IMG/VR virus record: IMGVR_UViG_3300025138_000016
Source: a virus
DNA: 64,000 nt
Reading direction: 5' to 3' (one strand)
In this document: positions 1 to 63,059 of the stretch, in pieces
Position numbering within the stretch: position 1 is the stretch's first letter
Layout: the number at the start of each line of letters is the position of its first letter
The notes under the pieces: model-generated
Database searches by the model: none
The model's input: only the letters and a program-made list of their open reading frames with translations
What the model was told of the DNA's origin: nothing
Made by a program: the position numbers and the translations under genes

Positions 1-735
1 ACCAAGATTAATACTGCTACCTCTTAATACTAAATCACCATTAACCGTTAAGGTATTAGATACTTCAATATTGTTAGCATATATTGTTGGTACATTAGCA
101 CTTGTACCTATTGTTAATACATCAATAGATGCATTAGCAGAGACAGTTAAGTTATCTAAACTATCTGTTGCTATAGTAGCTGTATAAGTTGAACCATCAG
201 CTCTTGTAAATAAAAGAGTATTGTTTGATGATGTAAATACAGAAGTTGTGGTAGACGTATTTGTTATCGATGCTGCTACTTGGACATCGTAGGTGGTGCT
301 GTCATCTCTGGTAAACGTAATAGTTTGGTTAGCAAACGCAAACGTAGCATTTGAGGTAGAGGTATTTGAAGAGCCGCCAGCATCAACATAAGCTTTGATA
401 GCTTCAGCTGAAACCAAGGTAGTTGAGTTAGCACCAGTTAACGTATTAGTTGATACAACACCGACATAAGCAACATTAACAACGCCTGAATCGGCTAATG
501 TCATACTGCTAGTCTTTATTGCATCAATATGCGTATTGGTATCAACAACAATTGCTTGGTTAGCTGTTAATGTTCCTGGAAAACGAGCTCCGGCAACAGC
601 TACGGATGTGCCATTTGTAAACCCACCAATGTATAAAATTCCACCATTGGCTGTAAATGCAGGTTCACCATATACTATGTTCGCGAACGAAGCAGTATTC
701 GTGGACCTTTTTATTCTTATTACAGTATTAGCCAT
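1..735 (-). CDS. Tail fibre-like structural protein, N-terminal part (runs off the window)
   Basis: Own translation from ATG at 735 (TAATG overlap with upstream stop): MANTVIRIKRSTNTASFANIVYGEPAF..., open to position 1; Thr/Ser/Asn/Ala-rich; IRIKRS...GEPA start is typical of phage fibre proteins. Confidence 0.75.
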   Translation of the reverse strand, partial: MANTVIRIKRSTNTASFANIVYGEPAFTANGGILYIGGFTNGTSVAVAGARFPGTLTANQAIVVDTNTHIDAIKTSSMTLADSGVVNVAYVGVVSTNTLTGANSTTLVSAEAIKAYVDAGGSSNTSTSNATFAFANQTITFTRDDSTTYDVQVAASITNTSTTTSVFTSSNNTLLFTRADGSTYTATIATDSLDNLTVSANASIDVLTIGTSANVPTIYANNIEVSNTLTVNGDLVLRGSSINLG

Positions 736-9830: not shown

Positions 9831-12776
9831 CTAGGCCGGCCAGGCCACATCACCATTAGCGTAATATACTCTGAATGCGTTTCCGCCTTCATCTTTAATA
9901 TCACTATGTATTGATAAGTCTCCTACTACGTTAGCTGCTGCTTGTAAGTTTGTTGCGCTTGTTACTTTTAATGTACCTGTTTCTGTTTCACCAGTAACAC
10001 TTACGTTAGCACCAGCAGTAATATTATTATCTACTTGTGCTGTAGAAGATACATTTATAAAGCCAGTAATAGTTGTATTACCAGTACCTAAAGTTTTACC
10101 TACAGATACGTGCTGTGTAGTAGATATATTACCACTAAAAGTACCTGTGTTAGCAGTTAATTTAAATCTCTTAGTTGTATCACCAAGTACCGCACCTGAT
10201 GTATTAGATGCAGGTTTAACACCTGAAGACGTTGATATAATGCCAGTAGTATTAATTGTATTAGCATTCAATACCCATCTATTATTTACATCACCTAATG
10301 AAACTGTATTGCCATTAGGAATAAATCCTACTGTTGAGTTACCAACAGGTGCAAGTACAAATAAATGCTCTGTACCTGAGTTATCACCAATAGTAGTATT
10401 ACCATCTAATGTTGTCTCTGCTGATACAGATAGTGTAGTCATTGTGGCTACATTTAATGATAGCGCGTTATCACTTGCAAGTGATGTTGTACCTTGTACT
10501 GTGAAATTACCAGCAACAGTAACATTATTACTGAATGCTGTATTTGGTGCAACGTCCATACCAGTATCAGTGATGTATAATTCACCGCTTACTAGATTAG
10601 CTGTTGCGCCTGTATGAATTATAGGTGAGGTTAAAGTACCATGCGCTAATGAGCCTGTTATAGACGTATCGCCGCCAACATTTAATTTCTGACCTATTTG
10701 TACTGACTTAGCTATACCAACACCACCTGAAGTAGTTATTGATCCAGTTGTAGTACTAGTACTATTAGCAGTGTTATCTACATCTATTTTACCATCAACA
10801 CCTAAGTGACTTGATACGTTAGCTGTTCCAGTAATCTCTACATCGCCAGTAATTGTAGCACCAGATGCTGAGACTGTTAAACCGTCTGCTACTGTTAATG
10901 AATCACCTAATACGACGTTACCTGATACATTAGCAAGACCAGTTATATCTGCTCCACCATTAAGATCAGATAATCCTGAAACCTCTAGTCCGCTTGATAG
11001 AGTAGCTTTACCTGTAACACCAAGAGTACTACCAACAGTAGCTGATGTTCCTATACCAGCTCCGCCGACTGTAGTTAAACTAGCGGCTGCGATAGCACCG
11101 TCTGCAGCTATAGCCCCTGAATCAGATATTACAGCATTTACTGTACTATTACCAATAGTTATTTTTGAATGTGTTATTGCGACATTACCAGCTGTAATAT
11201 TATCTTGAGCTGTTATTGCGCCTTGTACGTTTAATGTACTATTTAAATCTGTTGCACCATTAGCCTGTAAAGTACCTGTTACATTTGCACTTGCTGCTTT
11301 TACATTACCAGCAAATACTGCAGCATTAGCTGTAGTTGTTCCGTCTATTGAAACTGTATTACTTAATGTAGTTGATCCAAGCACTGATAGAGTACCATCA
11401 GTATCAACGGCTGTTTTTGTTATGGCTGTATTAACAGTTGAATTACCAACTGTTATTTTTGAAGTTGAGAGGTTAACATTAGCGCCAACATTCATTTGCG
11501 TTGTTGCGTTTGCTATACCTGTTGTTATTAGACCTGATTTAGCTCTTAATAATCCACCAACGTTAGCTGCACCTGATAATAAAGTAGTTGTACCTACTGA
11601 TAGATTATCAGTTATAGTAACTGTATCACCAGCTGTTACATTACCTGTTAGTGTTGTTAAACCTGATGCATTTATATCAGCTGCTTTTAATCCCCATCTA
11701 GCATCATTTAATCCTAATGTCTGTGTATTAGCTTCTGGATTAATATTTGAAGATACTTCAGCTATAAAGTTAACTGAATCTGAGTTAGCATTACCTAAAT
11801 CAACATCTGCATTAAGAGTTGTTTTGCCTGCAATAGTAAGAGTACTACTACCACCTATTGCTCCTGTCACATCGGCTTTACCGCCTATTGACGTATTCCC
11901 TGTAACTGCTAGAGTATTTGATACACTCACAGTATTACTATTAAGGTTCCATCTAGCGTCTGTTAGACCAAGGGACAATGCGTTAGAAACGGGGTTTAAG
12001 CTTGAATCAGACTCTGAATTAAACGTTACTGTATCACTATTAGCTGAACCAAGTACTACGTTTGCATTAAACTGTGACTCATCTGAATCAACAGTTACTA
12101 AGTTACCAGCCAATGTTACAGAGGTTGATGTACCATCTCCATTTATATCAATAGCAGATAAAGTTGAATTAGACTTAAGCGTTATATCGTTAGCAGTAAG
12201 AGTAGTATTATCATAATCAGCTGTTAATGTTGTACCATCCATATCAACTGTTGTAGAGTTAATATCTAATGTTGTACCAGTAACATGAACTGCTGTTGAA
12301 TTTATTGAAGTATTAGTTGATGATGAATTAATATGTACATTAGAACTAACTTGTAGCAAAGTACCATTAGCAAATACGTTTGCTGTTTCTAGATCAACGA
12401 ATGATCCTTTAATGGTAACAGAATTAACAGTAGCATTAGAGCTAACATTAACAGTACCGTTTGATAGATTACTGTTTGATGTAACGTAGAGAGTGTTTGA
12501 TACTTGTACATTACCACCTCTTACATCATTAAATACAGCAATTGTATTAGATTGTAATATACCGCCTGTGCTATTAACCCAAGCTTCAGTATCTTGATTG
12601 TAAACGTTTGATGTTATTACAACGTTACCAGATGTAGAACCACCAACAGTATTTTGCTGAGCAGTAACAACTGTCTCAGATAAATCAAATAGTATCTGAT
12701 TGGTTTTGTCTACCCAAGCACCAAAGGTGTCTGTTTGCGTTGCAATATTAGCGGATTTATATTTTCTTTCAGCCAT
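9831..12776 (-). CDS. Long tail fibre-like protein
   Basis: TDTFGAWVDKTNQI N-terminus; long Ser/Thr/Asn/Gly/Val beta-rich repeats; repeated LGxxDARW motifs. Confidence 0.75.
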   Translation of the reverse strand: MAERKYKSANIATQTDTFGAWVDKTNQILFDLSETVVTAQQNTVGGSTSGNVVITSNVYNQDTEAWVNSTGGILQSNTIAVFNDVRGGNVQVSNTLYVTSNSNLSNGTVNVSSNATVNSVTIKGSFVDLETANVFANGTLLQVSSNVHINSSSTNTSINSTAVHVTGTTLDINSTTVDMDGTTLTADYDNTTLTANDITLKSNSTLSAIDINGDGTSTSVTLAGNLVTVDSDESQFNANVVLGSANSDTVTFNSESDSSLNPVSNALSLGLTDARWNLNSNTVSVSNTLAVTGNTSIGGKADVTGAIGGSSTLTIAGKTTLNADVDLGNANSDSVNFIAEVSSNINPEANTQTLGLNDARWGLKAADINASGLTTLTGNVTAGDTVTITDNLSVGTTTLLSGAANVGGLLRAKSGLITTGIANATTQMNVGANVNLSTSKITVGNSTVNTAITKTAVDTDGTLSVLGSTTLSNTVSIDGTTTANAAVFAGNVKAASANVTGTLQANGATDLNSTLNVQGAITAQDNITAGNVAITHSKITIGNSTVNAVISDSGAIAADGAIAAASLTTVGGAGIGTSATVGSTLGVTGKATLSSGLEVSGLSDLNGGADITGLANVSGNVVLGDSLTVADGLTVSASGATITGDVEITGTANVSSHLGVDGKIDVDNTANSTSTTTGSITTSGGVGIAKSVQIGQKLNVGGDTSITGSLAHGTLTSPIIHTGATANLVSGELYITDTGMDVAPNTAFSNNVTVAGNFTVQGTTSLASDNALSLNVATMTTLSVSAETTLDGNTTIGDNSGTEHLFVLAPVGNSTVGFIPNGNTVSLGDVNNRWVLNANTINTTGIISTSSGVKPASNTSGAVLGDTTKRFKLTANTGTFSGNISTTQHVSVGKTLGTGNTTITGFINVSSTAQVDNNITAGANVSVTGETETGTLKVTSATNLQAAANVVGDLSIHSDIKDEGGNAFRVYYANGDVAWPA

Positions 12777-59368: not shown

Positions 59369-59444
59369 GGAGCTGTAGTTCATGTTGGTATTGAACGGCC
59401 TCATAGCAGGCAAGTTGCTGGTTCGAATCCAGCCAGCTCCACCA
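59369..59444 (+). ncRNA. tRNA-like RNA with shortened anticodon arm (CAT-containing loop)
   Basis: Perfect GGAGCTG/CAGCTCC acceptor + ACCA, GTTC/GAAC D-stem, GCTGG-TTCGAAT-CCAGC T-arm; anticodon arm only 14 nt. Confidence 0.75.
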
Positions 59445-61896: not shown

Positions 61897-61935
61897 TCCT
61901 TGATAGGCCCCCCCTATCAGGTTTCTACTCCTCCT

Positions 61936-61963
61936 GCCACCCCTTCGGGGGTGGCTTTTTTTT
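61936..61963 (+). terminator. Intrinsic terminator
   Basis: GCCACCCC-TTCG-GGGGTGGC followed by T8. Confidence 0.9.
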
Positions 61964-61977
61964 GTGGGAAATAAAGC

Positions 61978-62066
61978 TTGCATTTGTTCGAAGCTGCATA
62001 TAAAATCGCGCGCTTTCAAAATTAATGAAATAAACAGTTGCCTTAGGTCACATTAGCGCCGACAAT
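61978..62066 (+). promoter_or_regulatory. Tandem sigma70-type promoters upstream of the large ncRNA
   Basis: TTGCAT-N17-TAAAAT (61978-62006) and TTGCCT-N17-GACAAT (62038-62066), each with an A-rich upstream tract. Confidence 0.7.
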
Positions 62067-62072
62067 AGTGTT

Positions 62073-62692
62073 AACTTAGCAGGGGCTATATGGACGAAGC
62101 GCTCTAAACAATCTAAGTATCGTGATCGGACTGAAATGTTTGTAAGGGGTACAATAGATCAAGGGAAGGGCTTAAAGGTGATACCACTTCTGGAACGTCG
62201 TAGACAGAACTTGACTTAATCAATCAAGCCTTAAAGTCGCAGACTCTCCATCCAGCTAAGCGGGGTTCCTTGAGGGACTAGATTGGAATACTGAACCGTG
62301 TCAGACCGACTTAATGGATATGGACACCGCGGTAGAGTCAAGCGAAGGCGATCTTAATGATACACCTTATGCAGCCGAGTCATAAAAAGTCAGACTTGTT
62401 GGCCATACAATCTAAGACCAAGCAGTAGGGATCCCGGCCCCACCTTTTTCAGAGAACCTGGCAAGTTTAGCGACCGGCCCAGGAAAGCTCGAAACTGGAC
62501 TGCAACCATTAGCGATGGAAGCGTGAGCAGAGCTCCTATGTAGATGCGAACTCACACCGAAAGGTAGTAGTAGGTGATATGAGAACTATAGATAACTCAA
62601 GTAACCCTACCTTCGCACGGACCAGGATCCAGTATCGCTCTAGCGAGTGATAGAAATGCCCCTAAGGTTAAAAGCGTTAGGGGCACTTTTTT
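62073..62692 (+). ncRNA. Candidate large structured non-coding RNA, about 620 nt
   Basis: Bounded by promoter and terminator, no ORF of 60 aa or more, GC-richer than flanks, many hairpins and long-range complementarities. Confidence 0.7.
62657..62692 (+). terminator. Intrinsic terminator closing the ncRNA
   Basis: TGCCCCTAA/TTAGGGGCA 9-bp stem followed by CTTTTTT. Confidence 0.8.
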
Positions 62693-62706
62693 GTTTGAAA
62701 TAAAGC

Positions 62707-62735
62707 TTGACTTTTTTCGGGGTTGAATATAAAAT
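62707..62735 (+). promoter_or_regulatory. ATA-TAAAAT class promoter with no downstream + strand gene
   Basis: TTGACT-N17-TAAAAT, followed by a GC hairpin at 62748-62777. Confidence 0.65.
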
Positions 62736-62788
62736 TGGCTGCTTGAAACTCGGCGAGCAGATCTGCCCGCGCGAGTTAAGAATAAGTC

Positions 62789-62866
62789 TTATTCAGCTTT
62801 TGTGATGAGAGCAGCAATCACTACAATTGCTACTAACATTCCTAGCGTCACTAGAACGCTATCCAC
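62789..62866 (-). CDS. 25-aa single-TM peptide
   Basis: GTG start overlapping the upstream stop; MDSVLVTLGMLVAIVVIAALITKAE. Confidence 0.5.
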   Translation of the reverse strand: MDSVLVTLGMLVAIVVIAALITKAE

Positions 62867-63059
62867 GATTGAGCTCGTCGATCCTTGCTGGAATGACGCG
62901 ATGAACATTGCACTCGTTGCAGCATCTCGTATCTGCAATCGGAAGAGCATTATGCCCTCCTTCCCAAACCACCTCGCCGGTTGTTGGCGATCTTAGCGGC
63001 TCGATGTAACCGGAACAAAGTCCGCATCGTCTTGAATTAATGTCTGTTACGTTTGTCAT
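62859..63059 (-). CDS. Small Cys-rich (zinc-finger-like) protein
   Basis: CGLC ... GHNALP ... RCCNECN..VIPARI; AAGGAG RBS. Confidence 0.7.
   Translation of the reverse strand: MTNVTDINSRRCGLCSGYIEPLRSPTTGEVVWEGGHNALPIADTRCCNECNVHRVIPARIDELNRG

Follow-up and report, generated by a model that had tools for sequence, protein, structure and literature searches.

Evidence for a large three-domain structured RNA of an uncatalogued family in marine T4-like myoviruses

The DNA considered here, called the window, is a stretch of 64,000 nucleotides from the virus record IMGVR_UViG_3300025138_000016. Within a block of very short genes on this phage-like contig lies a stretch of 620 nt, 62073-62692 on the plus strand, which is very probably a gene in its own right, encoding a large, structured non-coding RNA of three domains from an uncatalogued family. 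A first, sequence-only reading of the window had proposed that a structured RNA of about 620 nt is encoded here by a stand-alone gene, with tandem promoters, a terminator and no open reading frame. The proposal has held up: homologs were found, their covariation is strong, and no reading frame is conserved among them. The RNA is 565–720 nt long in relatives. The GC content of the stretch is 0.44–0.50 vs 0.27–0.37 in the flanks, which agrees with the higher GC that had been noticed at the outset. The gene and its signals are as follows:

62073-62692, plus strand: whole RNA gene; nhmmer and covariance-model matches span its full length in relatives
62038-62066, plus strand: sigma-70-type promoter of the RNA gene (-35 at 62038-62043, 17-nt spacer, -10 at 62061-62066)
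61978-62006, plus strand: upstream promoter-like site, read from the sequence and below the scan threshold, with an extended A-rich upstream block
62660-62692, plus strand: terminal hairpin and U-run, a putative intrinsic terminator (helix 23; 4 compensatory pairs; 9-nt loop conserved)

Both members of the proposed promoter tandem could be located, the promoter-like site sitting about 60 nt upstream of the promoter. The latter matches only 8 of 12 hexamer positions in the window and is therefore omitted by a simple promoter scan; relatives match 10 of 12 at the same place, and its position is kept in L001, L002 and L258 with better hexamers than those of the window. The block of sequence identity with relatives starts 2 nt ahead of 62073, and transcription would start near this position. 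At the other end, the predicted terminator is present as a hairpin followed by a U-run. The stem of this hairpin has been completely exchanged between lineages, and its loop is conserved. In the window lineage the hairpin would act as the terminator. In the L149 subgroup the U-run is missing, and a terminator further on would end the RNA. The stretch has what is generally expected of an RNA gene, a promoter and a terminator of its own at positions conserved in relatives.

Several observations concern the DNA beyond the RNA. A strong promoter (62707-62735, plus strand, 10/12) stands directly 3' of the RNA's terminator and is kept in L001, L002 and L109. There is no ORF behind it in the region 62707-62810 on the plus strand, and its product would be a short hairpin-rich RNA or an antisense RNA to a minus-strand gene of 66 aa at 62859-63059. 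This gene encodes a Cys-rich, zinc-ribbon-like protein (CxxC ... CCxxC) that belongs to no Pfam family; its protein cluster occurs on 21 contigs, one of them of 155 kb. Between 60600 and 63800 of the window, 17 sigma-70-like promoters were found by scan vs 8.8 expected, several of which face each other or have no gene. In the L149/L115/L201/L113 subgroup, a stretch of about 600 nt 3' of the RNA contains almost no called genes. Its features are a promoter that is conserved, a hairpin rich in GC and, on the opposite strand, a small membrane-like ORF; its positions are:

L201 4877-5455, L113 10933-11514, L149 2726-3302, L115 2440-3017: near-gene-free downstream stretch

No catalogued family accounts for the RNA. 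At curated thresholds, Rfam 15 finds two tRNAs only in the whole window. A search of 61900-62800 at E up to 10 returned just short chance matches to terminator-like hairpins, and five relatives searched whole at E up to 1 gave no family match to the RNA. The sequence-only reading had seen a likeness to the classes ROOL and GOLLD in size and phage/tRNA context and had assigned no family; the models of these classes (RF03087 and RF01998) matched neither the window (E<=10) nor the five relatives (E<=1). Models of group I and II introns, RNase P RNA, 6S RNA and riboswitches gave no match. A resemblance to RNase P or a group I intron had been suspected by eye and is supported by no Rfam model. ARAGORN calls no tmRNA anywhere in the window; it reports two tRNAs and an odd tRNA-like gene. 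The odd call is a tRNA-like gene at 59369-59444 (plus strand), for which ARAGORN gives the anticodon as undetermined and which is absent from the list of Rfam tRNA model matches at the curated threshold. In the literature, no paper describing this RNA was found. A large survey of virus structured RNAs dealt with elements averaging 67 nt and required at least three regions in IMG/VR (PMC10690425).

The phages that carry the RNA belong to the HTVC008M/Melnitz group of marine T4-like myoviruses. Among the proteins encoded in the window are matches to T4-type baseplate hub families and to auxiliary metabolic genes. A 605-aa cyclase-like protein shows 44% identity to Pelagibacter phage HTVC008M and 36% to Methylophilales phage Melnitz, and a neighbouring DUF932 protein shows 56% identity to Melnitz. 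A DNA search of cultured phage genomes returned nothing similar to the RNA, and its neighbourhood gave tRNA matches only. By means of the DUF932 gene, 80 virus loci were recovered, and the RNA is present in 2 of them. In these two, the DUF932 protein is 96–97% identical and the RNA 72–78% identical, so the RNA sequence evolves fast. Eight further loci came from a metagenome scan with a 17-nt word taken from the best-conserved hairpin. Many more contigs, mostly identical copies of a few types, were reached through two small proteins encoded nearby, and a degenerate loop pattern run against the virus collection added L258, a long form that diverges strongly, and L263, a short form. An 18-nt 5' motif gave only chance matches within coding regions of the virus and genome collections, and two gapped patterns found no contigs in the virus collection beyond the two known.

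In total, 17 distinct long-form sequences and 2 short-form contigs were gathered from about 30 contigs, whose record names indicate Tara and other marine samples. About five lineages can be distinguished among the members, whose mosaic make-up is plain to see; L109, for example, combines a 5' half of the window kind with a 3' half of the L001/L002 kind. In L213, a 5027-nt Tara scaffold, a clean 28-nt deletion takes out an invariant hairpin of the central domain, and this copy is either a natural defective one or an assembly artefact. Two covariance models were built, R1 for the central domain and R2 for the 3' domain. R2, applied to 98 sources, found nothing in 78 other DUF932 loci or two Melnitz stretches, nor in loci carrying more distant relatives of a neighbouring gene. 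R1 found nothing in 34 other DUF932 loci, the whole Melnitz genome and four longer related virus contigs. As judged from these searches, only a sub-lineage of these phages carries the RNA family. Homologs together with no Rfam match had been named beforehand as the sign of a new family, and this is the combination that was obtained.

The reality of the family is indicated by conserved covariation; the fold energy by itself is unremarkable (z = -1.85 on the plus strand and -1.31 on the minus strand). RNAalifold, applied to 10 of the 17 long-form sequences, gives a consensus fold of 138 pairs, 56 of them with compensatory changes. Paired cells amount to 95.7%, compared with 35–44% when the 3' partners are slid by 1–3 columns, although these cell counts are inflated because the sequences represent about five lineages that exchange modules by recombination. 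The 56 compensatory pairs compare with 9–12 in the slid controls, and the covariation score of 0.386 with at most 0.08; 0 of 500 shuffles reach the observed values. Module exchange can also create apparent covariation with more than one partner. The fold has a direction. G-U pairs make up 162 cells, and the fold of the opposite strand is 85.0% paired vs 95.7% on the plus strand, a strand bias that agrees with the direction of the promoter and terminator. L258, divergent as it is, scores 35 bits with model R1. Once it is added, the central domain has 98.2% of its cells paired and compensatory changes in 30 of 50 pairs, in an alignment of L258 that was fitted to R1 and so favours the structure somewhat. 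The fold comprises three domains with the following parts:

62073-62260, plus strand: 5' domain, the most variable in sequence; helices 2-8
62096-99:62187-90, 62101-04:62168-71, 62113-20:62149-57 and 62208-14:62224-32, plus strand: 5'-domain helices
62090-94:62247-51, plus strand: closing helix of the 5' domain, 100% paired, 2 compensatory pairs
62075-80:62255-60, plus strand: possible second closing helix of the 5' domain, invariant
62082-86:62437-41, plus strand: candidate helix joining the 5' G-run to the central 3' strand (helix 1), which never varies
62261-62441, plus strand: central domain, the most conserved; helices 9-15 and 1
62261-70:62427-36 and 62274-85:62408-19, plus strand: central long-range helices, with 6 and 5 compensatory pairs, respectively
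62295-99:62329-33, 62342-53:62359-72 (invariant 5-nt loop) and 62376-81:62393-98, plus strand: central junction hairpins
62264-69:62274-79, plus strand: alternative local hairpin, 6 pairs, 100% paired, 3 compensatory
62447-62685, plus strand: 3' domain, covered by model R2 and present in the short forms; helices 16-23
62447-54:62487-94, 62456-60:62479-83, 62570-74:62606-10, 62580-83:62596-99 and 62633-40:62645-52, plus strand: 3'-domain helices
62495-502:62623-32, plus strand: 3'-domain long-range helix; the domain ends with the terminal hairpin
62519-62569, plus strand: lineage-specific insert of about 50 nt with two hairpins, one of them GAAA-capped

The local stems that had been picked out by eye fared unequally against this alignment. 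CTTGA/TCAAG, CCTGG/CCAGG and TATCGCTC/GAGTGATA are supported by covariation, and GTTCC/GGGAC finds support as the alternative local hairpin. The stem ACC-GAAA-GGT is present, with its place in the lineage-specific insert, and is common to L115. TTCTG/CAGAA and GACTCT/AGAGTC are not kept in the alignment of relatives. A pseudoknot had been suggested from two crossing long-range pairings, 62342-48:62610-16 and 62429-37:62622-30. It falls because both are broken in relatives and their strands pair elsewhere with compensation, in helices 14, 9 and 18. In the L149/L115/L201/L113 subgroup, the 5' G-run is unable to pair with the terminator arm as had been proposed. The insert at 62519-62569 is common to the window, L115, L231, L236 and L258, and one pair of its stem is compensated between the window and L115. 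At the same site, some other relatives have a shorter, UUCG-capped hairpin and the rest have none.

The helices 62082-86:62437-41 and 62075-80:62255-60 are neither supported nor refuted by covariation, since both are invariant; together, as modelled, they would make a pseudoknot. A tRNA- or tmRNA-like reading attaches to this closing region. On this view, the RNA would be processed and charged at an acceptor-like stem made by the 5' G-run and the strand it pairs with, behind which stands A-C-C. In its favour, the closing helices share the topology of the acceptor plus T stems of a tRNA, A-C-C comes after the 3' strand in most members, and Melnitz-type phages encode two-piece tmRNAs (PMC9004378). 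However, ARAGORN finds the Melnitz tmRNA with its tag peptide and nothing in the window's RNA, Rfam tmRNA models do not match, and the A-C-C is not kept in L258. The RNA has neither a T arm nor a tag reading frame, and its third pair is G-C and not G-U, so there is no pair of the G3-U70 type. An identity as tmRNA was rejected on these grounds, and the reading as a whole can hardly be correct.

The alternative local hairpin at 62264-62279 competes with both central long-range helices. Strand 62264-69 has two covarying partners, the local 62274-79 and the long-range 62427-36, and the one column of the local hairpin that is unpaired in the long-range model still changes in step. Strand 62247-51 likewise has two covarying partners, 62090-94 and 62191-94. 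The comparison of sequences suggests that the alternative hairpin could be a two-state element or a folding intermediate; module exchange among a few lineages can also yield such alternative-partner patterns.

It can be asked whether the stretch makes a product of this kind at all, or whether it is instead an element conserved as DNA, a long leader without translation, or a stretch that a short ORF accounts for. The longest ORF touching 62073-62692 has 47 codons, and no ORF of at least 25 codons is common to all lineages among the relatives. This bears out the earlier statement that the region has no ORF, as none in the stretch exceeds 47 aa and none is conserved across relatives. Gene callers of many independent assemblies called nothing in the RNA stretch. 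A frame of 23–60 aa does begin in an invariant hairpin, at about 62356, in all members, which speaks for a short ORF. Its length and C-terminus, however, differ in every lineage, and its amino acid replacements coincide with compensatory stem changes. Against a DNA element stands the preference of G-U pairs for one strand. The stretch is also not the leader of a downstream gene, since a terminator follows at its end and then the new promoter at 62707-62735. All these explanations without an RNA product are highly improbable, and the stretch is best read as a gene for a structured RNA.

The 3' domain also exists alone, as an RNA gene of about 280 nt in two contigs:

L249 ~2027-2306 and L263 ~10207-10488, minus strand: short form, 3' domain only, with a promoter of its own that a small hairpin precedes

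The short form consists of a promoter, the first dozen nucleotides of the family and then the 3' domain directly; the 5' and central domains are absent. In its helix 16, three changes of the 3' strand relative to the nearest long form restore an 8-pair helix with a new 5' strand. Because of these compensating changes, the short form is considered to be maintained by selection and the 3' domain to be an autonomous unit. This result is of importance for the possibility that the RNA is a ribozyme, the conserved central domain being a catalytic core whose substrate is the RNA itself or another one. Both stems and junctions of this domain contain long invariant runs, and peripheral stems vary freely. 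An invariant core with a freely varying periphery is a pattern typical of catalytic cores, and the size and multi-junction fold of the RNA would fit. Nevertheless, no Rfam ribozyme, intron or RNase P model matches, flanking exons or a processing site are not evident, and the short form is maintained even though it lacks the central domain altogether. A ribozyme is considered improbable.

An accessory module extends the RNA by 70–100 nt in the L149, L115, L201, L113 and L258 lineages and in the short forms, all of which lack a U-run after the terminal hairpin. In the long forms, its hairpin is found at these positions:

L149 3303-3373, L115 3018-3121, L201 5456-5527, L113 11515-11586 and L258 ~19-93, minus strand: accessory hairpin

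The loop of the accessory hairpin contains an exact 9-nt anti-Shine-Dalgarno sequence (the 3' end of 16S rRNA) and an anti-start-codon, and a terminator follows. Such a loop could belong to a regulator of translation, part of the RNA pairing with the ribosome-binding sites of messages. Yet the window's RNA and its close relatives are without this hairpin, and no message matching the loop was found in the recovered loci or the window. On the complementary strand, the sequence amounts to a perfect ribosome-binding site plus start codon, whose peptide, compared between L149 and L201, lacks conservation. Moreover, the ornate 600-nt fold far exceeds the needs of an antisense regulator. A role in translation of this type is decidedly improbable for the RNA.

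Two motifs are repeated within the RNA. A CUUAA-type 5-nt motif occurs in four loops or junctions, two of them invariant and the other two kept in 8/10 sequences. A UAGCG-type motif occurs in three hairpin loops and is kept in nearly all sequences; it corresponds to the TAGCGA loops reported earlier at 62468, 62510 and 62641, which are indeed present. A 10-mer that had been noted as repeated does occur twice in the window and is not repeated in relatives. A search of the RNA for pairs of identical words that vary in concert gave none. Repeated loops of this kind form the basis of the main rival account of function, in which the RNA is a protein-binding scaffold or decoy that titrates or organises a host or phage RNA-binding protein. 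CsrB acts in this manner on CsrA, and OLE likewise works with its partners. A partner might be sought in the Cys-rich, zinc-ribbon-like gene (64–69 aa), which stands tail-to-tail with the RNA in the window lineage and L196. In the L149 subgroup, however, this candidate is not adjacent, it has no Pfam family, and the repeated motifs could equally be RNA-RNA contacts. A scaffold or decoy appears rather unlikely, although it is less so than a ribozyme or a regulator of translation.

Self-association of the RNA is tentatively regarded as the most likely of the modes of action considered, though still less likely than not, mainly because of a single loop:

62586-62591, plus strand: 6-nt palindrome at the centre of a 12-nt hairpin loop, a candidate kissing site between two copies

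This is the sole 6-mer of the alignment that is palindromic in every member. It reads CUAUAG in most members and CGUACG in L115, L201, L113, L231 and L258; thus, four bases have changed and self-complementarity has been kept. Within a single chain, neighbouring bases are unable to pair with each other, and of two candidate intramolecular partners none changes along with the loop. For OLE and GOLLD, Kretsch et al. (2025, PMC12286853) used the same criterion, a palindrome switch, in support of kissing loops between molecules. Probably the switch happened only once in evolution, or a module was swapped. A rough estimate puts its chance occurrence at about one in 10–20 such alignments (5–10%), which leaves it no more than suggestive. 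As for the repeated loops, their 4-nt palindromes consist of A and U throughout, and their pairing would be weak. The idea of self-assembly, put forward earlier from the repeated loops, has gained one supporting point in this loop and stays a hypothesis.

Taken together, the observations can be arranged into the following scheme. The gene would be transcribed by the host RNA polymerase with sigma-70 early in infection, and its product would work as a folded RNA particle, in contrast to a message or cis-regulator. At least two copies would be joined via the palindromic loop 62586-62591, further contacts possibly coming from the repeated loops that bear a 4-nt palindrome. The resulting assembly would resemble the RNA-only assemblies of OLE, ROOL and GOLLD. 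With the alternative hairpin of the central domain, folding or assembly may pass through two states. The whole explanation, that is, an RNA gene of a new family whose product is a particle self-associating via the palindromic loop and has a two-state central domain, is given a probability of roughly 0.4. It makes a simple prediction: with two candidate versions of the dimerisation loop, CUAUAG and CGUACG RNAs should not co-assemble. Natural experiments are also at hand in the short form (the 3' domain alone), the very divergent long form and the covarying alternative helices. The source phages are related to those infecting the most abundant bacteria of the ocean surface.

Few large, intricate RNAs of bacteria and phages are known, namely ribosomal RNAs, group II introns, RNase P, OLE, GOLLD, ROOL and raiA. 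The earlier large RNAs each repaid study, and the present one is a well-supported addition. ROOL, for which we know of no function or protein partner, is of similar size to the present RNA. Both are carried by phages, have tRNA genes nearby (the nearest lie 2.6–5 kb from the present RNA) and contain many multistem junctions. The average length of ROOL is 581 nt (PMC5737381), and it forms RNA-only cages via kissing loops (PMC12286853), a mechanism that is tentatively favoured for the present RNA. The two differ in that they share no sequence or covariance-model similarity, and the hosts of ROOL are prophages of Firmicutes and rumen bacteria, whereas the present RNA belongs to marine T4-like myoviruses.

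GOLLD is likewise a large, ornate phage RNA that is also found in marine metagenomes. As in the present RNA, its 3' part is conserved and its 5' part varies more, and its intermolecular bridges are marked by palindrome-switching loops (PMC12286853). In contrast, its length exceeds 800 nt, it usually adjoins tRNA genes, its fold is unrelated and its model gives no match. OLE is ornate and about 600 nt long, and it forms a homodimer via a palindromic kissing loop that covaries between palindromes (PMC12286853). It differs in being chromosomal in extremophilic Firmicutes and in working with OLE-associated proteins at the membrane, and there is no model match here. The two-piece tmRNA of Melnitz-type phages and pelagimyophages is a structured RNA, too, and its gene stands downstream of an early promoter in phages of this group (PMC9004378; L221 15985-16437). 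It occupies another place in the genome, and the present RNA shows neither its T arm, nor its tag frame, nor any sequence similarity.

The kind of RNA is thus already known, as an ornate phage RNA of unassigned function in the manner of ROOL and GOLLD, and the family itself is new. A bolder proposition, which is speculative and must be called doubtful, is that it represents a third, unrelated class of self-assembling phage RNA. Such a class would be modular, with a 3' domain that dimerises by a palindromic kissing loop and can act alone and a two-state central switch that controls folding or assembly early in the infection of abundant ocean bacteria. Next to ROOL and GOLLD, the present RNA would extend the question of whether RNA-only assembly is a general habit of large phage RNAs.
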